A stretch of 64,000 nucleotides of DNA from Promethearchaeota archaeon (lineage in GTDB: Archaea; Asgardarchaeota; Lokiarchaeia; Sigyniarchaeales; SOKP01): positions 1-64,000 of the forward strand of contig JAHLWP010000015.1 in assembly GCA_019057865.1 (NCBI GenBank), read 5' to 3'. This document shows, piece by piece, positions 1 to 14,917 of the stretch. The notes under the pieces are model-generated. The model worked only from the letters and a program-made list of their open reading frames with translations, was not told the DNA's origin and ran no database searches. Within the stretch, counting starts at the first letter, position 1; every line of letters begins with the position of its first letter. The position numbers and the translations under genes are program-made.

Positions 1-109
1 TCGGCTTTCCGACCACGGAAATTAATAGAAAAAAAAATAAATACTTGAATACTATTAGAAAAAAAACATTTTCTTAGAAAATTTTCTCATCTATCATTTA
101 GTAAGGATT

Positions 110-2026
110 TTAAAAAAATTGCTCTATTTCAGCGAGAAAAAGATCTGCAATTGCGAGCCATTTCTGCTTTGTCTCAGGGTCAGATGTACTTTTCTTTGTT
201 AAATTTTTACCTTTTTTGAGATTTTTAAGTGCTAAATCATAATTTTCAAGCGCTTTATAACAAATCCCTAATTTAATATAAGTTTGATAAATGTACCAAT
301 CATCACTTCCAATCACGATTGCTTTAAGGAATCTTTTTACGGCTTCATCGTACTCTTCAAAATACATCAAAATTTCACCAAAAGTGTCTTGATAAATTCC
401 ATTTTCTGGGTCATCTTTTATGAGCTTTTGAATAATTTGTATCGATTCTTCTTTTTTGTCTAAATACTGCATCCAATAAGCTTTATAACAAATAAGATCA
501 TTATCTTTTGGAAATTTTTGAATAAGTCTATTAATTATCTCTAATCCTGCTTTAATATTTTGCGTTCTTCTAAGAACAGCTGCCTTTAATATTTTAATAT
601 CTTTTTCACTTTCAGGAAAAAGTTCAAGCAAATTATCCAATAGTTTTATTGCTTCTTGGTATTGATTAAAATAAATCAAAATTCTAATCTTCAAATAATA
701 TAAATCAAGGTCTTCGGGGTTTAATTCAATTTTCTTATCAATCCCTTTTATTTGTTCTTCATATTGATTTTCTAAATTTTCAGAGATTTGTGATTGAAAA
801 ATATCTGTTATGTTCTGCCAAATAATTCCTTCTAATTTATCATAAGTTTCTTTTAATTCTTTTTTAGTCTCAATTTTATAAGCAAGATATTTAATATATT
901 CTGGTAAAAATTCTCTTAATGACGCGTTCAAATCTTTATTAAATAAGAATTCACAACTCTTGTTTGCGATATCATTTATAATGGATTCCAAATCTATTGT
1001 AGGCACATTTGGCGTTGGTTTTGAAAAAAGCTTATTCAAATAAGAAACTTTAGTAATTTTATTCTCTGTAATTACTCGAAATATTCTTTCTAATCTTCCA
1101 TCTGATTGAAAGTAATATTGCTCACCCGATGGTTGTTTTAACTTGAAAAATCTTAATGGATATATTTTACCTTCTGAAATTTCGTCAATATAATAATCAA
1201 GTGTAGTTTTTTTAATTTTATAGAGTTTTGAGAAATCTTCAGAGGAAATAAAGTTTGGATATTGATCTGGATGATTAATTGAAAGAAAAAGTAAGATTTT
1301 ATGAAATATCTCCTCATCTTTTAATAATGGTTTTACTTTTTCATAATCTAATGTTAATATATTGGTAAGAAATCTAAATTGAATATCTTTATCTTTAATT
1401 CTGAATGTATCTAAAAATTTAATAGTTTTATTAGTAATCTCTTCAATTCGTTTACTCTCCTCCTCTAATATAGTTTGCCTATCTAAATCATAATTTTTAA
1501 GCATTCTTGAATACTCTGATTTACCTGCTCGGGTAATTATATATTTTCCATCCTCCTTTATTACAAAACCCTTTTCAATTAATAAACTTAAATTCTTTGA
1601 CAATGAAGATTGATTTATGGATAAAGGATCTTCAAGGAAGTCAGACCTTTTGCAATAATTATTATTGTAAACCATCCATAGAATCCAGTGGGAGTAATTT
1701 CTTCCACTTTTTAAGATTATTTTAGGAGGATAATTTGGTTTACGTGTCTTTTTCTCCGCACTTGATAACTCATGAAACTTATTTTTCCCCTCTGAAGTGA
1801 TTCTGTAATGCCCTCTTGAAAAATTTTCTACAAAGCCCTTACGTTTTAATGTTTCTAAATGTCTAGATAAAGTACCTGTAGGAATTTCAGTTGGTTCTTG
1901 ACGGAAGTCTGCCCATTTACACACGTCATTATTATTCAACATCCAGAGAATAATATGGTCATAGTCTGGCTTTTTCAACTTGGAAGGGCTATAGATCTTT
2001 TCTGGAGGATAATTTATGATTCCCAT
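110..2026 (-). CDS. Tandem winged-helix (2x wHTH) + C-terminal TPR protein, putative transcriptional regulator
   Basis: Internal repeat YPP.KI..Y.H.ILWM..C...DF...LS..L..L...GFV...Y.IT..GK occurs twice; C-terminal TPR-like helices (YQDTFGEILMYFEEYDEA, YIKLGICYKALENYDLA). Confidence 0.8.
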   Translation of the reverse strand: MGIINYPPEKIYSPSKLKKPDYDHIILWMLNNNDVCKWADFRQEPTEIPTGTLSRHLETLKRKGFVENFSRGHYRITSEGKNKFHELSSAEKKTRKPNYPPKIILKSGRNYSHWILWMVYNNNYCKRSDFLEDPLSINQSSLSKNLSLLIEKGFVIKEDGKYIITRAGKSEYSRMLKNYDLDRQTILEEESKRIEEITNKTIKFLDTFRIKDKDIQFRFLTNILTLDYEKVKPLLKDEEIFHKILLFLSINHPDQYPNFISSEDFSKLYKIKKTTLDYYIDEISEGKIYPLRFFKLKQPSGEQYYFQSDGRLERIFRVITENKITKVSYLNKLFSKPTPNVPTIDLESIINDIANKSCEFLFNKDLNASLREFLPEYIKYLAYKIETKKELKETYDKLEGIIWQNITDIFQSQISENLENQYEEQIKGIDKKIELNPEDLDLYYLKIRILIYFNQYQEAIKLLDNLLELFPESEKDIKILKAAVLRRTQNIKAGLEIINRLIQKFPKDNDLICYKAYWMQYLDKKEESIQIIQKLIKDDPENGIYQDTFGEILMYFEEYDEAVKRFLKAIVIGSDDWYIYQTYIKLGICYKALENYDLALKNLKKGKNLTKKSTSDPETKQKWLAIADLFLAEIEQFF

Positions 2027-2098
2027 AATTTGAGAAAACTTAATTTTATTTTCTAAATTATAGATCGTTTTCTTTTCTATTTATATCTATTTCATAGA

Positions 2099-2131
2099 AC
2101 TTCCATAAAAAATCGAAACTATCATGGAAGT
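2099..2131. promoter_or_regulatory. Inverted repeat ACTTCCAT-N17-ATGGAAGT upstream of TATA-like TTATAAA; candidate operator
   Basis: 8-bp perfect arms in the divergent intergenic region; identical copy at 9147-9179, variant at 10433-10461. Confidence 0.5.
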
Positions 2132-2245
2132 ATCGGAAGCTCAATTATAAAGGTAACTATATCTCAACATTTAATTGATCATCGTATTGATGATAAAACC
2201 AAATTTTTAAAAAAAAAAAAGAGTTGGATAAAAAAAATATTTGAG

Positions 2246-2944
2246 GTGAAAATGGTAGTGAAAAAGAAATCAAAAGTGACTACAGCACTGATTCCGGTAT
2301 TATTTTTAATAGGTATCATAGCAATTGTTACACCAGTGAACGCTTGTTACACTAATCGCATTTACATCATGGCAATAGGAGATGATCTAGATCTCCCTAG
2401 AACTAGTAATTTTATCATAGGGAACATTAAATTCAGTGGAGACAGTGAGCCCCCATCGGCAGGAGTATTTTTCTATTCAAAAATCTATGGTGAATCAGGT
2501 GAAAAATATGCGATGCTAGGAATGCTCAAAAATGGATTCCTTATAATGACCGATTTCGAATTTTATTGCCCAATCTTTGATGTCTGGTGGATTAACGTTT
2601 GGTGGGTCATGGGTGAGGGAATATTTAGAACTACTGATACCGATATCGAGGTATATTTTCGAGAGTCGCTTACAATAGCCATGCCAAATACCGAAGGTCA
2701 ATGCGTTCCAGCTTCCATTTTTATGTGGCTAAGCCCTACAGCTGAATATCGTGAATCGGAGGGTAATCCCACCGATCCCGAAAATCCCCTAAGACCAACA
2801 GGCCCAGTTAAAATTTGGGAACAAGGAGGATGGGCCCTTGCTGGGGTTTTTTGGGATGTTGGCATCCCTATGGATTTTGGGTTTGGAGTTGGTATATTGC
2901 CGATCGGTGTGATATCCTATTTGACAATATCCATAGGAATATGA
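2246..2944 (+). CDS. Secreted/surface protein, paralogue P1 (chimeric)
   Basis: Basic N-terminus, hydrophobic stretch and PVNA cleavage-like site; GAGGTGA RBS; homologous to 9294 and 10577. Confidence 0.8.
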   Translation: MKMVVKKKSKVTTALIPVLFLIGIIAIVTPVNACYTNRIYIMAIGDDLDLPRTSNFIIGNIKFSGDSEPPSAGVFFYSKIYGESGEKYAMLGMLKNGFLIMTDFEFYCPIFDVWWINVWWVMGEGIFRTTDTDIEVYFRESLTIAMPNTEGQCVPASIFMWLSPTAEYRESEGNPTDPENPLRPTGPVKIWEQGGWALAGVFWDVGIPMDFGFGVGILPIGVISYLTISIGI

Positions 2945-3328
2945 ATCCCATAACGCTAAGTCAATCGTAAGAGATAAAAAATAATGTAATATCTTAATTA
3001 AAATATAGAAAAAGAGAGGAACATGTTTAGATAATTGGCTTCTCGAATGACCACACCTAAACCAATATTCCTCCATTCTATATATCTTTTTTTTAATTAT
3101 TAAATTTAATGGACTATAGAATCTTTACACTATTGTATAATACACTAATTAAATTAATAATTATAACATTGATTTCAAACCCAATTTAAGTTAATATTAA
3201 TGGAGATAAACTCTCTTGAGCCTCTCATAAAAGAGATTTTTATTGCGAGAACTCTTCATTAAGCATTAGATTTAAAATTCTAATTAGCTTAATATTTCAT
3301 AAAGTTATAATCCAAATCAAATGAATAC

Positions 3329-5284
3329 ATGTCTCACATAGGGCTAAAGCAATTAACAAGAGCGGAACAGTTTTTTGATGCTGGTAAGCTTGATGAGGCT
3401 CTTGAAATATTAAACGATTGGAAGCAATTTGAGGGGCTTAATCCTCAGCAAAAAAACCATTTTCAGTTTCTTAAGGGCTTAATTCTATTTTATCAGAATA
3501 AAAGTGAAGAAGTTTCTAAATTGGGTGAACAGTTATTAAAAGAAGGGCAAAAACTTAATGAACCTCTCCAATCGGTTGATGGATATTTTTTTATAATCGT
3601 TGGACCAGGTCTAGCTAATAAATTTGACGAAGCATCCAAATTTCTTGAAAAAGCTGAAGGTTCGTTAAGGCTTATTTCTAATAGACCTAGAGATGTTTTA
3701 ATTCAAAGAGAAGTTCGTATAAGATTGGCAAAAGCATTTATTAATGTGTTTGGAGGTAATATAGAAATAGCAGAGAAGTGCGTAGACTGGATCTTAGGGT
3801 CACAAAAAGACCTTGGTATATCATTCGAAATTGTTTGGGCTAATATATTAATGGCACTAATAATGGGTAAAGCAAAAAGTAAATTTGATCTTGGTCTGGA
3901 ATACATCAAGAAAGCAATGTCAATAGCAAAGGAAATTAAATTTAACCACTTCTGGATTGCTATATGTCATCTAATTTTTGGGGCGTTATATAATGCTATT
4001 GGCGAATTTAATATTAGCTTGAAACATCATATGAAGTGTTTAGCGATATTTAAAGAAATTAACAACAGTTTCTATACTGCAGGAGCACTTAATAATATAG
4101 GATCCACCTATATTTCTATTGGTGATTATGATCTTGCTTTGGAATATTTAGAAGAAAGTTTATCATATTATGAAATCCAATCTATACAATTACAACTCCC
4201 TCTTGGTAATTTAATTGATGTGGCTCTGGAAATAGGAGATAATCAACGTGCGCAAAAATATTTTCAACGCTTAGAAGATATGTACAATCAAACAAAAGAT
4301 GAAGATGTCATTTTAATCTATCAATTCGCTAAAGCTTTAATGTTAAAAAGCAGTTCTCGAATCCGCGATAAAGCTAAAGTTGAAGAATTATTGAAAGAAG
4401 TCATCAAAACAGAAACTATTCGTTTTGATCTTATTATTTGCGCAATTATCCATCTTTGTGACTTGCTTCTTTTAGAATATCGTCTAAATAATAATAGTGA
4501 AGTACTTGATGAACTAAATCACTACATTGCTAAATTATTAACTATAGCTGAGAAATCACATTCATATCTAGTTTTTTGTGAAACATTCATATTACAAGCC
4601 AAATTAGCTTTAATAAATTTTAATCTGAAAGCAGCCCGACGATATTTAACTCAAGCTCAAAAGATAGCGGAATCATATGGTATAAAACGATTAGCAATGA
4701 AAATTTCACATGAGCATGATGAATTACTTAGACAAATAAAGATGTGGGAGAATTTAAAAGAATCAGAAGCGTCTTTATCTGAACGCTGGAAATTCGCTGG
4801 TTTGAACGAGCAAATGGAGAATATGGCAAGAAAACGAATGATTGAAGCTCCTAAGATCTCAGAAGAGGAGCCTGTTTCAATTTTAATCATAACCGAAGGG
4901 GGAACTTCTATATTTTCCCATTCCTTTATTAAAGATAAAGCATTTGAATCTCATATTTTTGGTGGTTTTATAACCACTATTGATTATTTTATTAGGGAAA
5001 TGTTTTCTGAAGGACTAGACCGCGCAATCTTTGGTGAATATACTCTTCTTATCAAATCTATTCCCCCTTTTTTTATTTCTTATATATTTAAAGGTGATTC
5101 TTATTATGCTTATCAGAAGATAACTTATTTTATTGATCATATCCAAAAAGAAGATGTTATTTGGCAAAATTTACTTAAATCTTTTCAAGTAAGCCAGTCT
5201 ATTCACTTAAAAGATATCCCCTTACTTGAATCCTTAATAACAGATACATTTATCACTAAAAATATCGTATCTAGTGAATTATAA
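3329..5284 (+). CDS. TPR-repeat protein with C-terminal longin-like domain
   Basis: TPRs (ALNNIGSTYISIGDYDLALEYLEESL); C-terminal ILIITEGGTSIFSHSF...HIFGGFITTIDYFIREMF resembles the longin fold start. Confidence 0.75.
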   Translation: MSHIGLKQLTRAEQFFDAGKLDEALEILNDWKQFEGLNPQQKNHFQFLKGLILFYQNKSEEVSKLGEQLLKEGQKLNEPLQSVDGYFFIIVGPGLANKFDEASKFLEKAEGSLRLISNRPRDVLIQREVRIRLAKAFINVFGGNIEIAEKCVDWILGSQKDLGISFEIVWANILMALIMGKAKSKFDLGLEYIKKAMSIAKEIKFNHFWIAICHLIFGALYNAIGEFNISLKHHMKCLAIFKEINNSFYTAGALNNIGSTYISIGDYDLALEYLEESLSYYEIQSIQLQLPLGNLIDVALEIGDNQRAQKYFQRLEDMYNQTKDEDVILIYQFAKALMLKSSSRIRDKAKVEELLKEVIKTETIRFDLIICAIIHLCDLLLLEYRLNNNSEVLDELNHYIAKLLTIAEKSHSYLVFCETFILQAKLALINFNLKAARRYLTQAQKIAESYGIKRLAMKISHEHDELLRQIKMWENLKESEASLSERWKFAGLNEQMENMARKRMIEAPKISEEEPVSILIITEGGTSIFSHSFIKDKAFESHIFGGFITTIDYFIREMFSEGLDRAIFGEYTLLIKSIPPFFISYIFKGDSYYAYQKITYFIDHIQKEDVIWQNLLKSFQVSQSIHLKDIPLLESLITDTFITKNIVSSEL

Positions 5285-5401
5285 CTTCTAAATTAAATAA
5301 ATGCTGTTTTTACCAAAATTCATTTAGCTAAAATTTTATATTTTACAATATCTAATTTTACATACAAGTATAATAAAATTTGAGAAACACTTACTGATTT
5401 A

Positions 5402-5956
5402 ATGACTAAAACTCAGGAATTTGGATTTAAGATATCTATAATAGGAGATGGAGGGGTCGGTAAAACATCTTTAATAAAAAAATTTACGAAAGGGACCTTT
5501 GAAAAAGATTATATTAAGACTATAGGTGCCCAATTTTCGAGATATGATAAAGAAATTAATGGGGATGCTATTAATTTAGTATTTTGGGACATAGCTGGCC
5601 AAGATGATTTTAATTTTTTACACCCTTTATTTTATAAAGAAAGTAGAGCCAGTATTATTGTATGTAGCCTTGAAGCAAATGATTTAGGTAATAATAGCTT
5701 TCTTCATATAAAGAATTGGTATAATGAATTAAGCAAGTATTGTGGCGATATTCCTGTAGTTTTATTTGCCAATAAATTTGATTTGGTGAATGAAAATAAT
5801 TTAAATGAACTTGAAATACAAGAAATTGTCAAAGAATATAATTTTCTTGGATACTATATTACTTCTGCAAAAACAGGACAGGGAGTAATAGAAGCATTTA
5901 ATGCAATTATTGAAAAATTATATTATAAATATAAAAAGTTATCCTCCCAGGAATAA
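5402..5956 (+). CDS. Rab/Ras-like small GTPase
   Basis: G1 GDGGVGKTS, G2 YIKTIG, G3 WDIAGQ, G4 NKFD, G5 TSAK; no C-terminal prenylation Cys. Confidence 0.95.
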   Translation: MTKTQEFGFKISIIGDGGVGKTSLIKKFTKGTFEKDYIKTIGAQFSRYDKEINGDAINLVFWDIAGQDDFNFLHPLFYKESRASIIVCSLEANDLGNNSFLHIKNWYNELSKYCGDIPVVLFANKFDLVNENNLNELEIQEIVKEYNFLGYYITSAKTGQGVIEAFNAIIEKLYYKYKKLSSQE

Positions 5957-6061
5957 CTTAATTGTAATTCTCTTCAATCTGCATAATCTCTGCAAATATT
6001 CATGATAATGAAATAGAATTTCTAAAAAAAAAATGATTAGAATTATCAATTGAATCTAGTT

Positions 6062-7063
6062 TCATTTTTGAAATTCTTTTGGAATATGGACAGCAAACTT
6101 ACATTCCACTTTTCCTGTAAGAGGGGTTTCAATTGGCTCTACTTTAGTTGGTTGATCGAATATGATATCCCAATATTGTTTAGTGAATCCAGCACTGCAA
6201 TGACAGAAATTAGGAGAAATTTCTTGCTCAGTACCGTTCTTAATTGCACCTCGTACCCAAGCACAGTAACAACTATAATATCTTTTCATCCTTTCGTCCT
6301 CAGCATTTAGAAGTTTTTTTATTTGATACGGTATTTTAGTAACAATTATTTTATCTCCTTCTCTTATTCCAGGAGTGATTGTTGGATTGCTTTTTATATA
6401 TTCTACTACTTCTTCATCAATATACTGAGCATATTCTAAAGTACCCTCTTTTTGGTGTTTTTGAACTCTTTCTACAAATTCCTGCTTTTTCAACTTTAAA
6501 AATTCATCAATATCACTTAATCTTAAAAAATCCTCTCTATCTCTTTTAATGGGTTCAAGAGGGCGTCCATGCAGGCAAGGTGCTAATAATTTTATGGTGT
6601 CTTCTACACTGAGTTTCTCTTCTAGTCTTTTCATAATCTCTTTTGTAAATTCTGGTTTTTTATCAGGATCGCCTCCTAAAGGCGGAATGTCTATATTTTC
6701 AAAAATTTCATCTCGAATTTTTTCATCGAATTGCTCAGCAATTCTGAGATATAGATTGTCCATTGCATTAGAGGACTCTTCGATATCAATAATCTCAACG
6801 ATATAATCATATTTTTTTGTGAAATAAGCATAGTGATATAGAGCTATTAACAATTCTAATACAGTTTTACTTTCATTTTCAACTAAATATTCTGTATATT
6901 CGAGGATTCCTCCAGTGGGAATTGAATCAACATTCAAATCCTCTTTTTTGAGATAACTATTAAATTGGTTTAATCTAGAAACAAAACCCGTAGCCTGCTC
7001 TTGAGTAATATTATTCTGTAAAAGATATTTCATGAAAACTTTTTCTTTCAAAATAAAATACAC
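6062..7063 (-). CDS. Cys-rich hypothetical protein (DUF6144-like C-terminal domain)
   Basis: YSCYCAWVR...FCHCSAGF..QYW...C.FAVHIP motif set; start may be the ATG at 7033. Confidence 0.6.
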   Translation of the reverse strand: MYFILKEKVFMKYLLQNNITQEQATGFVSRLNQFNSYLKKEDLNVDSIPTGGILEYTEYLVENESKTVLELLIALYHYAYFTKKYDYIVEIIDIEESSNAMDNLYLRIAEQFDEKIRDEIFENIDIPPLGGDPDKKPEFTKEIMKRLEEKLSVEDTIKLLAPCLHGRPLEPIKRDREDFLRLSDIDEFLKLKKQEFVERVQKHQKEGTLEYAQYIDEEVVEYIKSNPTITPGIREGDKIIVTKIPYQIKKLLNAEDERMKRYYSCYCAWVRGAIKNGTEQEISPNFCHCSAGFTKQYWDIIFDQPTKVEPIETPLTGKVECKFAVHIPKEFQK

Positions 7064-7157
7064 TTTTATTTTTAGTTATCCTGGAAGAATAAATTAAGGA
7101 TATAATTTATCAACTTCGATATGCTTATATTTTCAATAATCCACTTTTATATTTAAT

Positions 7158-9074
7158 TTAATAAAATTGTTCTATTTCTGTGAGAAAAAGATCTGCGATT
7201 GTGAGCCATTTGTGCTTTGTCTCAGGGTCAGATGTACTTTTCTTTGTTAAATCTTTACCTTTTTTGAGATTTTTAAGTGCTAAATCATAATTTTCAAGGG
7301 CTTTATAACAAATCCCTAATTTAATATAAGTTTGATAAATGTACCAATCATCACTTCCAATCACGATTGCTTTAAGGAATTTTTTTGTTGCTTCATCGTA
7401 CTCTTCAAAATACATCAAAATTTCACCATATGTATCCTGATAAATTCCATTTTCTGGTTCGCCTTTTATGAGGTTTTGAACAATTTTTATCGATTCCTCT
7501 TTTTTGTCTAAATATTGCATCCAATAAGCCTTATAGCAAATAAGATCATTATTATTTGGAAATTTTTGAATTAATTCATTAATTATCTTTAATCCTGCTT
7601 TAAGATTTTGCATTCTTTTAAAGACAGCTGCCTTTAGCATCTTAATATCCTTTTCACTTTCTGGAAAAATTTCTAGCATTTCTTCTAATAATTTTGTTGC
7701 TTCCTGGTATTGGTTAAAATACATCAAAATTCTTATCTTCAAATAGTAAAATTCAAGATTTTCTGGGTTTAATTCAATATCCTTATCAATTTTTTTTATC
7801 TGTTCTTCATATTGATTTTCTAAACTTTGAGAGATCTGTGCTTGAAAGAGATCTGTTATGTTCTGCCAAATTATTCCCTCTAATTTATCATAAGTTTCTT
7901 TTAATTCCTTTTTAGTCTCAATTTTATAAGCTAGATACTTAATATATTCTGGTAAAAACTCCCTTAATGATGTTTTCAAATCTTTATTAAATAAGAATTC
8001 ACATGCCGTATTTACAATATCATTTATGATAGATTTCATATCAATTGTAGGCACTTCTGGCGTTGGTTTTGAAAAAAGCTTATTCAAATAGGTGATTTTA
8101 GTGATTTGATTCTCTGTGATTACCCGAAATATTCTTTCTAATCTTCCATCTGATTGAAAGTAATATTGCTCACCTGATGGTTGTGTTAATTTGAAGAATC
8201 TTAATGGATATATTTTTCCTTCAGAAATTTCGTCAATATAGTAGTCTAGTGTAGTTTTCTTAATTTTATAGATTTCTGAGAAATCTTCAGAGGAAATATA
8301 GTTTGGATATTGATCTGGATGATTAATTGAAAGAAAAAGTAGGATTTTATGAAAAGTATCCTCGTCCTTTAATATTGGTTTTACTTTTTCATAATCTAAT
8401 CTTAATATATTGTTAAGAAATCTAAATTGTATATCCTCTTCTTTAATATTGTAATTCTCAAAAAATTTGATGGTTTTTTTAGTAATCTCCTCAATTCGTT
8501 TACCCTCCTCCTCTAAAATAGTTTGTCTATCTAAATCATAATTTTTAAGCATCCTTGAATACTCTGATTTACCTGCTCGGGTAATTATATATTTTCCATC
8601 CTCTTTTATTGCCAATTCCTTTTCTATTAATAAACTCAAATTCTTTGACAATGAAGATTGATTTATGAATACAGGTTCTTCAAGGAAGTCAGACCTTTTG
8701 CAATAATTATTATTATAAACCATCCAAAGTATCCAGTCAGAGTAATTTCTTCCACTTTTTAAGATAATTTTTGGAGGATAATTTGGCTTACGTGTCTTTT
8801 TCTCCGCACTTGATAACTCATGAAACTTCTTTTTCCCCTCTGAAGTGATTCTGTAATGCCCTCTTGAAAAATTTTCTACAAAACCCTTACGTTTTAATGT
8901 TTCTAAATGTCTAGATAAAGTACCTGTAGGAATTTCGATTGGTTCTTGACGAAAGTCTGCCCATTTACATGATTCATTATTATTCAACATCCAGAGAATA
9001 ATGTGGTCATAGTCCGGCTTTTTCAACTTGGAAGGGCTATAGATCTTTTCTGGAGGATAATTTATGATTCCCAT
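7158..9074 (-). CDS. Tandem wHTH + TPR protein, copy 2
   Basis: Same length (638 aa) and high identity to 110..2026. Confidence 0.8.
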   Translation of the reverse strand: MGIINYPPEKIYSPSKLKKPDYDHIILWMLNNNESCKWADFRQEPIEIPTGTLSRHLETLKRKGFVENFSRGHYRITSEGKKKFHELSSAEKKTRKPNYPPKIILKSGRNYSDWILWMVYNNNYCKRSDFLEEPVFINQSSLSKNLSLLIEKELAIKEDGKYIITRAGKSEYSRMLKNYDLDRQTILEEEGKRIEEITKKTIKFFENYNIKEEDIQFRFLNNILRLDYEKVKPILKDEDTFHKILLFLSINHPDQYPNYISSEDFSEIYKIKKTTLDYYIDEISEGKIYPLRFFKLTQPSGEQYYFQSDGRLERIFRVITENQITKITYLNKLFSKPTPEVPTIDMKSIINDIVNTACEFLFNKDLKTSLREFLPEYIKYLAYKIETKKELKETYDKLEGIIWQNITDLFQAQISQSLENQYEEQIKKIDKDIELNPENLEFYYLKIRILMYFNQYQEATKLLEEMLEIFPESEKDIKMLKAAVFKRMQNLKAGLKIINELIQKFPNNNDLICYKAYWMQYLDKKEESIKIVQNLIKGEPENGIYQDTYGEILMYFEEYDEATKKFLKAIVIGSDDWYIYQTYIKLGICYKALENYDLALKNLKKGKDLTKKSTSDPETKHKWLTIADLFLTEIEQFY

Positions 9075-9293
9075 AATTTGAGAAAACTTAATTTTATTTT
9101 CTAAATTATAGATCGTTTTCTTTTCTATTTATATCTATTTCATAGAACTTCCATAAAAAATCGAAACTATCATGGAAGTATCGGAAGCTCAATTATAAAG
9201 GTAACTATATCTCAACATTTAATTGATCATCGTATTGATGATAAAACCAAATTTTTAAAAAAAAAAAAGAGTTGGATAAAAAAAATATTTGAG

Positions 9294-9935
9294 GTGAAAA
9301 TGGTAGTGAAAAAGAAATCAAAAGTGACTACAGCACTGATTCCGGTATTATTTTTAATAGGTATCATAGCAATTGTTACACCAGTGAACGCTTGTTACAC
9401 TAATCGCATTTACATCATGGCGAAAGGGGATGACGAAGATATTGCTGGAGCTACTACTTCAATCATAGCAATGATTGAATTCGATAAAGCTAGCGGCATC
9501 CCTTCAGTGGCACAAGTAGAATTCCAAACAAAAATTTATGATGAATCAGGAGAGAAAATTTATTCGATGAAGGGAAAGCTTATAGATGGTTTAATAATAA
9601 GCGATAGCTTTCAATTTTATTGCACAGTACGAGAAGTCACGTGGATTAACCTTTGGTTTATCATGGGTGAGGGAAGACTTAAAACTACTGATACAGTTAT
9701 CGAGATAGAATATCGAGGGCAAACAATAACCTTGCCAAATACGGAAGGTCAATATATTCCATTTTCCATTTTTATGATGGTAAGCCCTAAAGGTGAATAT
9801 GTTTTAGGTGAAGATCCCGAAGTTTTTATTTGGCCACAAGGAGGATGGGCTACTGCTGGAATTATGGTTGGTGGAATCCCGAGCTTCGGTGTGGTAACCT
9901 ATTTGACAAAATACATGGAAAAATTGGTCCCTTAA
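9294..9935 (+). CDS. Secreted/surface protein, paralogue P2
   Basis: First 43 aa identical to P1, then diverged; shares KIY.ESGEK, WIN.W..MGEG..TTDT, PNTEG, W.QGGWA. Confidence 0.8.
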   Translation: MKMVVKKKSKVTTALIPVLFLIGIIAIVTPVNACYTNRIYIMAKGDDEDIAGATTSIIAMIEFDKASGIPSVAQVEFQTKIYDESGEKIYSMKGKLIDGLIISDSFQFYCTVREVTWINLWFIMGEGRLKTTDTVIEIEYRGQTITLPNTEGQYIPFSIFMMVSPKGEYVLGEDPEVFIWPQGGWATAGIMVGGIPSFGVVTYLTKYMEKLVP

Positions 9936-10029
9936 CACTAAGTCAAGCGTAACAGATAAGAAATATATTCTAAAATCTTTTTTTTTTTTTTTCATCTCAT
10001 TTTAAATTAAATATAGGATTGAATGTGTT

Positions 10030-10299
10030 GTGCTAGAACAAACATTTCTAAATAATAACTCTTCTAACTTCACAATCCTACACTTCACAATCCTACACTG
10101 TATCATAACTGATAAAGTCACGGGTGAAATATTACAACATTCCATTTACGGAGATACTTCAAGGGACTATCGGATTAACGAACTTTCTGAACAGTATATA
10201 ACAAACTTCAAGACTCATAAAATACCTACAACCTATTTAGTTAGTATTTACAGGAGAGGTTTCTTTATAGGTGATTTTACCTTTACTACAGTCAAATAA
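10030..10299 (+). pseudogene. Short ORF or gene remnant with an in-frame 15-bp tandem duplication
   Basis: ACTTCACAATCCTAC x2 at 10067-10096 (FTILH FTILH); no recognisable family or RBS. Confidence 0.3.
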
Positions 10300-10576
10300 A
10301 TTCTAATTCCAAACTTTTTTTTTAAATATTCTCATCCTACAAATTTTTTCGAACTAGTTTTTCACATCAATTTTTTTTTCACTTTGTCATCTTACTCTGG
10401 CATACATGAGGCAATTTATTAAATTTTCTTTTCTTCCATAAAGAATCGAAAGTTCCATGGATATATCGGAAGCTCAATTATAAAGGTAATTCTATCTCAA
10501 CCTTTAATTAGTCATCATAAAGATGATAAAACCTAAAATTAAAAAAAAAAGAGTTGAATAAAAAGAAATATTTGAG

Positions 10577-11239
10577 GTGAAAATGATAGTGAAAGAGAAA
10601 TCAAAAGTGACTAAAGCACTGATCGCGGCATCATTTTTAATATGTATCATAGCAATTGTTACACCAGTGGTGGCGGCTAATACTAATCGCGTCTTCTTCG
10701 TAGCAATAGGAGATGATCTAGATATCCCTGGAACTACTAATATTATCATAGGGAAGATTAAATTCGGTGGAGGCAATGAGCTCCCATCGGCGCGAGTAGT
10801 TTTCCATTCAAAAATCTATGATGATTCAGGTGAAAAAGTGTATACTATGATAGGAATGCTCAAAGATGGATATCTTATGGACACCAGCTTTTCATTTTTT
10901 TGCCCACTCTTTAAAGTCTGGTTTATTAACGTGTGGCAAGTCATGGGTGAGGGAAAGTTTAGAACTACTGATACCAATATCGAGGTATATTTTCGAGATT
11001 TGCTTACAATAACCATGCCAAATACTGAAGGTAAATTTGTATCAGCACCGATTTTAATGTTACTAAGCCCTACAGCTGAATATAGAAATGGTGATCCAAT
11101 AACTGGACCGATAGGGCCAGTTAAAATTTGGGAACAAGGAAGATGGGCCCTTGCTGCGGTTATATGGTATGTTCCTGAAATTGGTGATTATTTGCCGATC
11201 GGTCCGCTATCCTATTTGACAATATCCATAGGAATATGA
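10577..11239 (+). CDS. Secreted/surface protein, paralogue P3
   Basis: Signal peptide; body closest to P1; own copy of the promoter (10433-10576). Confidence 0.8.
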   Translation: MKMIVKEKSKVTKALIAASFLICIIAIVTPVVAANTNRVFFVAIGDDLDIPGTTNIIIGKIKFGGGNELPSARVVFHSKIYDDSGEKVYTMIGMLKDGYLMDTSFSFFCPLFKVWFINVWQVMGEGKFRTTDTNIEVYFRDLLTITMPNTEGKFVSAPILMLLSPTAEYRNGDPITGPIGPVKIWEQGRWALAAVIWYVPEIGDYLPIGPLSYLTISIGI

Positions 11240-11623
11240 ATCCCATAACGCTAAGTCAATCGTAAGAGATAAAAAATAATGTAATATCTTAATTAAAATA
11301 TAGAAAAAGAGAGGAACATGTTTAGATAATTGGCTTCTCGAATGACCACACCTAAACTAAAATTCCTCCATTCTATATCTCTTTTTTTGTATTATTAAAT
11401 TTATTGAACGATAGAATCTTTACAATATTGTATAATACAAAAATTATACTTATAATTATAACATAGATTCAAAACTCGATTTAAGTTAATCTTAATGGAA
11501 ATAAACTCTTTAGAGCCTCTCATAAAAGAGATTTTCATTGCGAAGATTCTTCATTAAGCATTAGATTTAAAATTATATTTACCTTAATATTTCATAAAGC
11601 TATAATCCAAATCAAATGAATAT

Positions 11624-13588
11624 ATGTCTCACCCAGGGCTAAAGCAATTAACAAGAGCAGAGCAACTTTTTGATGATGGTAATCTTGAAGAGGCTCTTGA
11701 AATTCTAAATGATGAGAGTCATTTTGAGGGGCTTAATCTTCAGCAAAAAAGTTATTTTCAGTTTCTTAAGGGATTAATTCTCTTTTTTCTTAATAAAGGG
11801 GAAGATCTCATTAGTTTAGGCGAGACAATTTATAAAGAAGGTCAAAAATGTAATGATAATCTCCAATCTTTTGATGGATTATTTTTTATTATTACTGGAT
11901 TAGCTATAGCTGGTAAATTTGAGGAAGCGTTCAATTTTTTTAAAGAAATTGAATCATTAATAAAGTCTATTTCAAATGTGTCTAAAGAAATTATAACTCA
12001 AAGAAAAGCTCGTCTAAGTGTAGCAAAAGCTTTTGTTGGATTGCATGGTGGTAAAGTAGATTTGGTTGAGACGTCTTTAGAGTGGATCTTAGATTCACAA
12101 GAAAAATTCGAGAAATCATTCGAAATCGTCTGGGCTAATCTTCTAATGGCGAGTTATTTAGTACGAGTAAAAAGCAAGTTTGATCTTTGTAGGGAGCACA
12201 TCAAAAAAGCATTATCTCTTGCAAAGGAAATTAAATTTAATCACTACTGGATTGCTCTGTGTCAACTCTATTTTGGAGTATATTATATATCTATTGGCGA
12301 AATGGATAAAAGCTTGAAATATAACATAAAGGGTTTAGAATTATTTAAAAAGATAAAGAGTAGTTTTAATGTTGCACTTCTATTAAATAATATTGGGAAT
12401 TTATATGGTGAAATGAGTGAATATGAACTTGCTGTGGAACATTTAGAGGAGAGTATAAATCTTTTAGAGCAGATTCCTCAAAGTTTTTTTTCTATTGAAG
12501 GCACTATTGAAAGTTTAATAACCTTAGCCGTTGAACATGGAGATAACGAACGTGCTCAAAAATATTTTCATCGTTTGGAAGATATTTATAACCAAAAAAG
12601 AGACGATAGAATTGAATTTCTTTACAAATTTGATAAAGCCCTAATTTTAAAAACAAGTTCTCGAATCCGAGATAAAGCAAAAGCAGAAGAATTATTCAAA
12701 GAACTCATAGAAACTGATACTATAGCTTTTGATCTTATTATAAAAGCTCATATCCATCTTTGTGACATACTTCTCACGGAATATCGTATTAATAATGATA
12801 GTGAGATTTTTACCGAATTGAATTATTACATTTCCAAATTATTGACTATCGCGGAGAAACAACATTCGTATATTGTTTTTTGTGAAACCTTCATACTTCA
12901 AGCCAGATTAGCTCTACTAAATTTTGATATAAAATCGGCTCGACTGTTTTTGACTCAAGCACAGAAGATAGCAGAGTCCTATAGCATGAAACGCTTAGCA
13001 ATGAAAATTTCACATGAACATGATGAATTACTTAGACAAATAAAGATGTGGGAGAATTTAAAAGAATCAGAAGCGTCTTTATCTGAACGCTGGAAGCTCG
13101 CTGGTCTGAACGAGCAAATGGAGAATATGGTAAGAAAACGAATGATTGAAGCTCCTAAGATCTCAGAAGAAGAGCCTGTCACAATTTTTATCATAACAGA
13201 AGGAGGGTCAACTTTATTCTCCCACTCATTTATTGATCAAAAATCTTTTGAATCACATCTTTTTGGCGGTTTCTTAACAACTATTGATTATTTTATTAGG
13301 GAAATGTTTTCTGAAGGACTAGACAGCGCAATCTTCGGTGAATATACTCTTCTTATGAAATCTATTCCACCTTTTTTTATTTCTTATATATTTAGAGGTG
13401 ATTCTTATTATGCTCATCAGAAGATAAATTATTTTATCGATCATATCCAAAAAGAAGATGTTATTTGGCAAAATTTACTTAAATCTTTTCAAATAAGCCA
13501 GTCTATTCACTTAAAAGATATTCCCTTACTTGAATCCTTAATAACAGAAATATTTATCACTAAAAGTATTGTATATAGTGAATTATAA
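11624..13588 (+). CDS. TPR + longin-like protein, copy 2
   Basis: Homologous to 3329..5284; TPR part diverged, C-terminal third highly similar. Confidence 0.75.
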   Translation: MSHPGLKQLTRAEQLFDDGNLEEALEILNDESHFEGLNLQQKSYFQFLKGLILFFLNKGEDLISLGETIYKEGQKCNDNLQSFDGLFFIITGLAIAGKFEEAFNFFKEIESLIKSISNVSKEIITQRKARLSVAKAFVGLHGGKVDLVETSLEWILDSQEKFEKSFEIVWANLLMASYLVRVKSKFDLCREHIKKALSLAKEIKFNHYWIALCQLYFGVYYISIGEMDKSLKYNIKGLELFKKIKSSFNVALLLNNIGNLYGEMSEYELAVEHLEESINLLEQIPQSFFSIEGTIESLITLAVEHGDNERAQKYFHRLEDIYNQKRDDRIEFLYKFDKALILKTSSRIRDKAKAEELFKELIETDTIAFDLIIKAHIHLCDILLTEYRINNDSEIFTELNYYISKLLTIAEKQHSYIVFCETFILQARLALLNFDIKSARLFLTQAQKIAESYSMKRLAMKISHEHDELLRQIKMWENLKESEASLSERWKLAGLNEQMENMVRKRMIEAPKISEEEPVTIFIITEGGSTLFSHSFIDQKSFESHLFGGFLTTIDYFIREMFSEGLDSAIFGEYTLLMKSIPPFFISYIFRGDSYYAHQKINYFIDHIQKEDVIWQNLLKSFQISQSIHLKDIPLLESLITEIFITKSIVYSEL

Positions 13589-13669
13589 CTTCTAAATTAA
13601 AGAAATGCTGTTATATACAAAATTCATTTAGCTAAAATTTTATATTATACAATATCTAATTTTACATTA

Positions 13670-14224
13670 ATGACTAAAACTCAGGAATTTGGATTTAAGA
13701 TATCTATAATTGGAGATGGAGGGGTCGGTAAAACATCTTTAATAAAAAAATTTACGAAAGGGACCTTTGAAAAAGATTATATTAAGACTATAGGTGCCCA
13801 ATTTTCAAGATGTGATAAAGAAATTAATGGGGATGTAATTAATTTAATATTTTGGGATATAGCAGGTCAAGATGATTTTAATTTTTTACATCCTTTATTT
13901 TATAAAGAAAGTAGAGCCAGCATTATTGTATATAGCCTTGAAACAAATGATTTAGGTAAATATAGCTTTCTTCATATAAAGAATTGGTATAATGAATTAA
14001 ACAAGTATTGTGGCGATATTCCTGTTGTTTTATTTGCCAATAAATTTGATTTGGTGAATGAAAATAATTTTAATGAACTTGAAATTCAAGAAATTGTCAA
14101 AAAATATAATTTTCTTGGATACTATATTACTTCTGCAAAAACAGGACAAGGTGTAATAGAAGCATTTAATGCAATTATTGAAAAATTATATTATAAATAT
14201 AAAAAATTATCCTCCCAGGAATAA
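13670..14224 (+). CDS. Rab/Ras-like small GTPase, copy 2
   Basis: All G motifs intact; 10 aa differences from 5402..5956. Confidence 0.95.
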   Translation: MTKTQEFGFKISIIGDGGVGKTSLIKKFTKGTFEKDYIKTIGAQFSRCDKEINGDVINLIFWDIAGQDDFNFLHPLFYKESRASIIVYSLETNDLGKYSFLHIKNWYNELNKYCGDIPVVLFANKFDLVNENNFNELEIQEIVKKYNFLGYYITSAKTGQGVIEAFNAIIEKLYYKYKKLSSQE

Positions 14225-14330
14225 CTTAATTTTATTTCTCTTCAATCTACATAATCTCTGCAAATATTCATGATAATGAAATAGAATTTCTAAAAGAAAA
14301 AATTATTAGAATTTTCAATTTAATCTAGTT

Positions 14331-14758
14331 TCATTTTTGAAATTCTTTTGGAATATGGACAGCAAACTTACATTCCACTTTCCCTGTAAGAGGGGTTTCA
14401 ATTGGTTCTACTTTAGTTGGTTGATCGAATATGATATCCCAATATTGTTTGATGAATCCAGCACTGCAATGGCAGAAATTAGGAGAAATTTCTTGCTCAG
14501 TACCATTCTTAATTGCACCTCGTACCCAAGCACAGTAACAACTATAATATCTTTTCATTCTTTCGTCCTCAGCATTTAGAAGTTTTTTTATTTGATATGG
14601 TATTTTGGTGACAATTATTTTATCTCCTTCTCTTATTCCAGGAGTGATTGTTGGATTGCTTTTTATATATTCTACTACTTCTTCATCAATATACTGAGCA
14701 TATTCTAAAGTACCCTCTTTTTGGTGTTTTTGAACTCTTTCTACAAATTCCTGCTTTT
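14331..14758 (-). pseudogene. 5'-truncated copy of the Cys-rich DUF6144-like gene
   Basis: Only the part from KQEFVERVQK onward matches 6062..6489; the N-terminus of ORF 14849 is unrelated sequence. Confidence 0.8.
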
Positions 14759-14917
14759 GAATATTGTCTGGCATTGACTTTTGGTGCATGTGTTGGTATT
14801 TTAGAAAAAACAGCTGGATCTGATTTAAAATTGCTTCAAGATCCAGCATGGCAGAATGAAAATTTAACCAATGTGGAAAATAATTCTGAAAGTATTAAGG
14901 CTTTTCTTACCCAATAA
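14748..14917 (+). pseudogene. 3' remnant of an interrupted gene (possibly SLOG-like domain end)
   Basis: IPAFEYCLALTFGACVGILEKTAGSDLKLLQDPAW...FLTQ** begins at the duplication junction; the family guess rests on motif resemblance only. Confidence 0.45.

Follow-up and report, generated by a model that had tools for sequence, protein, structure and literature searches.

The window analysed here, 64,000 nucleotides from a Promethearchaeota archaeon (GenBank assembly GCA_019057865.1, contig JAHLWP010000015.1, positions 1 to 64,000 of the forward strand), has a G+C content of ~30% and carries near its start three copies of a gene for a small exported protein, here called P: P1 (2246–2944), P2 (9294–9935) and P3 (10577–11239), all on the forward strand. 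An earlier note on this DNA had drawn attention to an excess of replacement over silent differences between P1 and P3 and proposed strong diversifying selection, as in an arms race. Our analysis makes it probable that P is instead a functional exported beta-barrel that is weakly constrained and recombining, with an exposed surface that drifts; weak constraint and recombination in a functional gene, rather than demonstrable positive selection, are taken to account for the surplus of replacement over silent changes.

Recounting the interval on which the earlier claim rested (P1 2372–2698 against P3 10703–11032, forward strand; 109 codons) confirmed its figures: exactly 32 codons differ by replacement and four by silent changes only, with a single extra codon in P3 (EK-V-Y). 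In this AT-rich gene, though, ~79% of the sites in the interval are non-synonymous, so that a count of 32:4 lies close to the neutral expectation. The ratio of non-synonymous to synonymous divergence (omega, or dN/dS) was 1.23 by the Nei-Gojobori method and 1.31 by maximum likelihood (ML; GY94, F3x4), the latter not different from 1 (likelihood-ratio test statistic (LRT) 0.46, p = 0.5). Between P1 and P3 the ML estimate fell to 0.995 over the whole gene and to 0.88 over the mature part; omega values of 0.2 (p = 7e-9) and 2.0 (p = 0.006) were rejected in codon-model tests, whereas 1 (p ≥ 0.5) and 0.62 were not. P is not above neutrality: no gene-wide or region-wide omega significantly greater than 1 was found between close copies, whether in the regions of P1–P3 or in five independent close pairs (joint estimate 0.79).

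The neighbouring genes, which are duplicated along with P, behave differently. Omega between their copies was 0.11 for a Ras-like GTPase, 0.18 for a winged helix-turn-helix (wHTH) regulator, 0.24 for a TPR protein and 0.24 for a Cys-rich gene, all far below 1, which bears out the view that P (omega ~0.9–1.0) is much less constrained than its surroundings. For the GTPase copies, earlier put at about 10 non-synonymous and 12 synonymous differences, the Nei-Gojobori count is 10.0 and 13.0.

P1, P2 and P3 are the only copies of the gene in the 4.26-Mb genome. On the mature region the genes that cluster with P1 come from two other species and those that cluster with P3 from yet others, so P1 and P3 are not simple recent duplicates. 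P3 (220 aa) has its nearest relatives in other species of the genus (locus L038, dS 0.09), while P2 (213 aa) belongs to a shorter subfamily that lacks two loops. The placement of P1 (232 aa; a signal peptide in codons 1–33 followed by the barrel) changes with the region used, from P2 on the full length to L041/L004 on the mature region: its upstream region and codons 1–43 are identical to those of P2, whereas its body is of the P3/L041 type. Positions 1968–2373 and 9016–9421 agree at 406 of 406 bases, a block that spans the start of the divergent wHTH gene, the common 219-bp intergenic region and the signal-peptide codons of P, and that marks a recent conversion or crossover. At the other end, the previously reported identity of 2913–3062 with 11208–11357 holds at 150 of 150 bases, across the last codons of P1 and P3 and the 3′ flank. 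These identity blocks, shared with P2 on the 5′ side and with P3 at the 3′ end, make P1 a chimera.

Of 54 genomes searched within the genus, 26 carry the P family, whereas none of the 25 searched outside it does. A word-indexed search of 5.8 billion proteins returned 126 members, all labelled ‘hypothetical’, and an exhaustive profile search of 1.84 billion representatives only 31; the database members are labelled as Asgard (Promethearchaeota/Lokiarchaeota) metagenome-assembled genomes, and no relatives of P were found on viral contigs. From genome loci we assembled 32 distinct genes from 26 genomes, aligned over 180 mature codons, which form two subfamilies, P2-like and P1/P3-like. Under the one-ratio model (M0) family-wide omega was 0.62–0.64, against 0.136 for the wHTH gene and 0.316 for the N-terminus of the TPR protein in cross-species comparisons within the genus. 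Divergence was almost flat over the three codon positions (0.30/0.27/0.33 pairwise); 11 columns were invariant and many more were >90% conserved. None of the 32 aligned genes contains an internal stop, although neutral truncation should have left ~100 nonsense events on the tree, so the genes are selected to stay open.

One of the 34 genomic matches in the genus is interrupted by a single in-frame TAA (locus L029; genome G065, contig C17, 39340–40017). This copy may be a pseudogene, or the TAA may be an error of sequencing or lie slightly 5′ of the true start; the codon alignment used a 224-aa open reading frame (ORF) from the locus that has no interruption. Partial similarity to P was also seen in three genomes of the genus (L023:937–1896 on the reverse strand, L024 and L025), in open frames of 328–334 codons with ~30% identity to the first half of the P barrel. 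These share with P the motifs SGE, G-x-LK-x-G, VW-x-IVG-x-G and KT-x-TDT but differ in their C-terminal part; the L023 frame holds a 319-aa ORF bearing a signal peptide.

That P is exported, as the earlier note had proposed, is supported by sequence features: Lys-rich residues 2–10, an 18-residue hydrophobic stretch at about 14–28 and a V-x-A cleavage motif whose V31 and A33 are kept in 113 and 115, respectively, of 119 sequences. These make up what is probably a Sec-type, type I signal peptide, cut after V-x-A. An AlphaFold2 model built from 119 sequences, with a mean predicted local distance difference test score (pLDDT) of 84 and values >90 over most of residues 40–230, places a low-confidence N-terminal helix at 11–28 before ~12 strand elements arranged as a meander barrel, and so predicts that the mature ~190 residues form an up-and-down beta-barrel. 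The family could not be assigned before, and it matches no Pfam, NCBIfam or PDB sequence now: P1 hit no Pfam family at E ≤ 0.1 and P2 and P3 gave chance-level matches only, PADLOC returned nothing for P, profile searches of PDB and feature-based searches of ESM Atlas gave nothing usable, and nothing usable on the family was found in the literature. The Foldseek search that had been suggested yielded no significant match for the model in PDB (best E 0.05) or among viral models.

Variation along the protein follows this predicted architecture. On the variable face 24 of 56 strand positions differ between P1 and P3, but only 6 of 56 do so on the conserved one (Fisher p = 2e-4), and column entropy across 119 family members is correlated at lag 2 (r = 0.34) and not at lag 1 (r = −0.08), so the alternation along predicted strands described earlier is real. 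The conserved face is hydrophobic (mean Kyte-Doolittle value 1.05) and the variable face polar on average (−0.07). Loops alternate likewise, odd-numbered ones being conserved (entropy 0.57–1.13) and even-numbered ones variable (1.37–1.81): loops 1, 3, 5 and 7 carry GDDxD, the turn after YD (YDESG), TTDT and PNTEG, while loops 2, 4 and 6 vary. Strand and loop order, rather than coordinates, suggests that the four acidic or polar loops lie at one pole of the barrel. Overall, ~40% of codons are constrained (the hydrophobic strand face, turns and the four acidic loops) and ~60%, on the opposite strand face and in the rest of the loops, evolve at omega ~1. Variable sites do cluster structurally, where scattering would have counted against the earlier proposal, but the pattern is the ordinary one for any beta-barrel, in which the buried face is kept and the exposed face is free. 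Since the most conserved surface consists of the acidic loops, the likeliest functional site is conserved rather than diversified.

It is here that the strongest alternative has to be weighed, namely that selection truly diversifies the exposed surface and the long hairpin, for instance in virus, partner or kin recognition, that recombination spreads the variants, and that our tests are underpowered or confounded. We consider this unlikely, though it deserves a full hearing. Standard site models, fitted with our own codon-model code (M0 log-likelihood −9120.80, against −9120.87 from IQ-TREE), speak for it: on a single tree the LRT was 69 for M2a against M1a, 96 for M8 against M7 and 61 for M8 against M8a, with ~15% of sites at omega 1.9, and across the M2a and M8 fits 9–16% of sites fell at 1.9–2.5. 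The candidate sites alternate along strands (101/103/105, 120, 135/137, 157/159 and 189/191), with others in loops; the genes occur in several copies, as mosaics whose ends are conserved; omega is estimated at 1.0–1.7 in a number of close pairs; and unrelated exported proteins found at the equivalent position in other loci also show raised values (0.48–0.57). Recombination in the family is strong, one and two breakpoints improving the Akaike information criterion by 343 and 569, and with three partition trees the M2a signal persisted (LRT 55, omega 2.5 at 9% of sites).

This signal vanished once the synonymous rate was allowed to vary among sites. A per-site test in which each site had its own synonymous rate (alpha) found the non-synonymous rate (beta) to exceed alpha at five sites at p < 0.1 (one at p < 0.05), fewer than the ~9 expected by chance if all sites were neutral, and purifying selection at 41 of 180 sites (p < 0.1). 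A grid mixture with dual rates fitted 35 log-likelihood units better than the same grid with a fixed synonymous rate, placed ~60% of its weight on classes with alpha = beta (rates 0.3–2.3) and gained an LRT of only 1.8 from any class with beta > alpha, against 52.7 with alpha fixed, which reproduces the M2a result; even without such a class the dual-rate model was ~34 log-likelihood units better than the M2a-like grid. With recombination and synonymous-rate variation both admitted, then, no class with beta > alpha indicative of pervasive diversifying selection was supported.

Simulations on the same trees and with the same gap pattern as the data decided between the two readings. In all 12 replicates with selection of the strength fitted by M2a, the dual-rate LRT (6.6–47, mean 23) exceeded the observed one, so that such selection would have been detected, whereas rate variation without any selection produced a false fixed-alpha LRT averaging 59 (observed 52.7) and a dual-rate LRT averaging 3.9. 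We therefore set aside the M2a/M8 signal as an artefact of rate variation and recombination. Cross-validation that avoided ascertainment bias, with variable sites defined in one 17-gene clade and omega then estimated in five independent close pairs from other clades, gave 0.51 for the conserved sites, while the variable ones reached 1.10 (p = 0.67 for a difference from 1) and the top quartile 0.87. Together with the family-wide omega of 0.62–0.64, the value of 0.88 for mature P1 and P3 and the rejection of a gene-wide omega of 2 or more, these results go against strong diversifying selection or an arms race; omega at or below 1 with more sequences is also the outcome that the earlier note had itself named as contrary to its proposal.

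Several points weigh against our preferred account of weak constraint and recombination. The dual-rate test cannot exclude weak or episodic selection, and the site models were run with fixed M0 branch lengths on 32 sequences, using code checked against IQ-TREE for M0 only. The close pairs with point estimates above 1 have to be read alongside the constrained ~40% of sites, because of which a gene-wide omega of ~1 leaves room for mild positive selection elsewhere in the gene. The terms ‘inward’, ‘outward’ and ‘one pole’ derive from strand alternation and loop order, not from model coordinates. Silent sites, too, may be an unclean neutral yardstick: GC content at third codon positions (GC3) is 0.32–0.35 in the P genes and 0.16–0.25 in 17 other genes of the window, so silent sites in P are not at the mutational equilibrium of the genome, possibly through biased gene conversion or a foreign origin. 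Finally, in cassettes whose wHTH gene is 76–89% identical to that of genome G000 (L009, L019, L021, L026 and L044, compared with the two cassettes of the window), dS was 0.15–0.59 for P but 0.38–1.5 for wHTH, making it 2–10 times lower in P than in the adjacent gene.

These last observations are the substance of a second alternative, to which we give little credence: that omega is inflated because silent sites are constrained or homogenised—an overlapping RNA, some other element or biased gene conversion being examples of a cause—while the protein itself is under ordinary purifying selection. The high GC3, the flat divergence over codon positions, the low dS and the fact that dN of P is only 2–4 times that of wHTH, much like that of the TPR N-terminus, would all fit. 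Against this, P and the adjacent TPR-longin gene have similar dS in these loci, which suggests that the P/TPR unit and the wHTH regulator have different histories, and the contrast in dS would fit better with a recombination boundary, perhaps with biased gene conversion. The identity blocks show recent conversion, which lowers dN and dS alike. An overlapping gene was rejected, as the family has no second frame that stays open throughout (median stop-free stretch at most 78 codons), and so was selection on codon usage as the cause of low dS, since codon bias is weaker in P than in its neighbours (effective number of codons 46–56 against 32–46 in the 17 other genes). A third reading, in which the P ORFs are spurious or in decay and omega is near 1 because nothing selects for the protein, is very improbable, for although pairwise omega is indistinguishable from 1, codon usage is atypical, no known family matches and one of the 34 genomic copies has an internal TAA, a pseudogene would not leave all 32 aligned genes open, show significant purifying selection at 41 of 180 sites, keep invariant Gly, Asp, Phe, Trp and Pro-Asn-Thr columns, or combine a confident predicted fold with a conserved place in the cassette.

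Under the account we favour, P1, P2 and P3 are paralogous members of a small family restricted to a single genus of Lokiarchaeia-type Asgard archaea. Selection would act on the inward hydrophobic strand positions, on Gly/Pro turns and on the acidic or polar loops GDDxD, YDESG, TTDT and PNTEG, which may be where the protein works, on a cation or on some conserved ligand or partner. Elsewhere, in the ~60% of codons that make up outward strand positions, the long hairpin and the other loops, replacements would accrue at about the synonymous rate. Frequent recombination or gene conversion among paralogues, and probably among species, would shuffle the resulting variants and leave blocks of exact identity at the gene ends around a mosaic centre. 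Within the locus, P fills a slot for exported proteins, with a divergent wHTH-TPR regulator on one side and a TPR-longin/Ras-like GTPase pair on the other.

A segmental duplication lies within the first 15 kb of the window, with unit A at 109–7063 and unit B at 7157–14849. Unit A consists of a double winged-helix and TPR regulator (110–2026, reverse strand, divergent from P1), P1, the TPR-longin protein (3329–5284, forward), a Ras/Rab-like small GTPase (5402–5956, forward) and a Cys-rich gene of 333 aa at its end (6062–7063, reverse). Unit B holds the same set, but with P2 and P3 in tandem and a truncated last gene: the regulator lies at 7158–9074, divergent from P2, the TPR-longin protein at 11624–13588 and the GTPase at 13670–14224. 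Its Cys-rich copy (14331–14849, reverse) retains only 172 aa, corresponding to the C-terminal half, over which omega is 0.24. The order of divergent wHTH, P, TPR-longin and GTPase genes recurs in relatives, and the arrangement suggests that the wHTH-TPR regulator probably controls expression of P.

Between units A and B the N-terminal TPR part of the TPR-longin protein is only 46–65% identical (dS 0.65–1.9), whereas its last ~200 codons, the longin part, are 86–89% identical. The C-terminal 182 residues were modelled with a pLDDT of 70 and a beta-beta-alpha-beta-beta-beta-alpha strand order, and Foldseek matched the model with probabilities of 0.97–1.00 to AP sigma subunits, sedlin, Mon1-Ccz1 and LAMTOR (target-normalised template modelling (TM) score 0.5–0.6); the domain is predicted on this basis to have a longin/roadblock fold. 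The TPR-longin family is much enlarged in the genus, with at least 20 matches in some genomes, often in tandem arrays (L054–L083), and only three in G000.

Where cassettes lack P, the slot upstream of TPR-longin is often filled by other small exported or membrane proteins unrelated to it (L056:504–1178, L057:3766–4431 on the reverse strand, L062:3721–4224 on the reverse strand, L066:869–1276 and L067:935–1342), whose raised omega was measured at dS 0.2–0.27. A profile–profile comparison with hhalign of P against a 224-aa exported slot protein of another genome gave a probability of 0.9%, marking the two as unrelated. It is conceivable, though doubtful, that P and these unrelated proteins serve as dedicated cargo or extracellular partners of the adjacent TPR-longin protein and Ras-like GTPase. 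If so, an Asgard GTPase/longin module would be tied to exporting or sensing a single specific protein, and the fast-diverging TPR domain would be a specificity element that changes together with its exported partner. Complex prediction for mature P1 with the TPR domain of its neighbour gave no support, a result that by the predictor’s own statement is not evidence either way.

Two lessons concern method: in an AT-rich genome, replacement changes can strikingly outnumber silent ones and still match the neutral expectation, and the standard M2a and M8 tests can return an LRT >50 from recombination and rate variation alone. What is newly defined is an unannotated, genus-restricted family of exported beta-barrels in Asgard archaea, with a confident predicted fold, conserved acidic loops and a fixed place in a multi-copy cassette centred on the TPR-longin protein and Ras-like GTPase, and any interest lies in the link between exported proteins and a eukaryote-like GTPase module rather than in an arms race.

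Among known structures, the model of P, with its all-next-neighbour antiparallel strands, most resembles small eight-stranded meander barrels, such as the transmembrane domains of OmpA, NspA, PagL and OmpX and the soluble barrels of PliC/MliC type. Its best matches were OmpA (3nb3_A, Z 9.0 over 120 residues, root-mean-square deviation (rmsd) 4.8), NspA (Z 7.9) and PliC (3oe3_A, Z 7.7 over 85 of 85 residues, rmsd 2.8), although Z values of 7–9 are the usual best scores for models without a true match and the OmpA-type similarity is generic; in ESM Atlas its neighbours were PagL, YfaZ and OMP_b-brl clusters (TM 0.41–0.45). P differs from the OmpA, PagL and PliC barrels in lacking any sequence relation to them, in its archaeal host, in its ~12 strand elements and long hairpin, and in its conserved acidic loops. 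A transmembrane barrel was rejected because, judged by strand alternation, the polarity is opposite (conserved face 1.05, variable face −0.07): the variable, presumably outer face is polar, so P is not lipid-embedded, which fits a soluble barrel with a buried core. Lipocalin or calycin identity was likewise rejected, the model having no helix after the signal peptide and Pfam returning no family match.

Other systems in which proteins vary rapidly offer partial parallels. P does not look like the target of a diversity-generating retroelement: all six classes of substitution are present between P1 and P3 (12–26 each) without adenine bias, and there is no reverse transcriptase among the ORFs of the cassette. 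Three-finger toxins are described as showing ‘rapid accumulation of variations in exposed residues’, with positive selection reported (PMC3847720). They resemble P in being small, exported, multi-copy and lineage-restricted, with a conserved core and replacements at exposed positions; P differs in its omega of 1.1 at variable sites and in that all tests allowing for synonymous-rate variation were negative.

At the level of gene arrangement, RRNPP-type quorum sensing in Firmicutes pairs an HTH-TPR regulator with an adjacent gene for an exported signal. The P locus is similar in arrangement only, with a gene for a DNA-binding and TPR protein beside, and here divergent from, one for a product bearing a signal peptide; P, predicted to be a folded 190-residue barrel, does not correspond to a short pro-peptide, and the regulator has two winged helices.

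For the pattern of variation itself, the pilE/pilS and opa genes of Neisseria, which are gene-conversion mosaics encoding bacterial surface proteins, provide the other comparison. P differs from them in having three copies only, each of them complete and provided with a start and signal peptide of its own, and no silent cassettes, and no evidence of programmed switching of P was found; but it shares with them conserved 5′ and 3′ ends around a variable centre, identity blocks that end abruptly and a phylogeny that is strongly incongruent along the gene.

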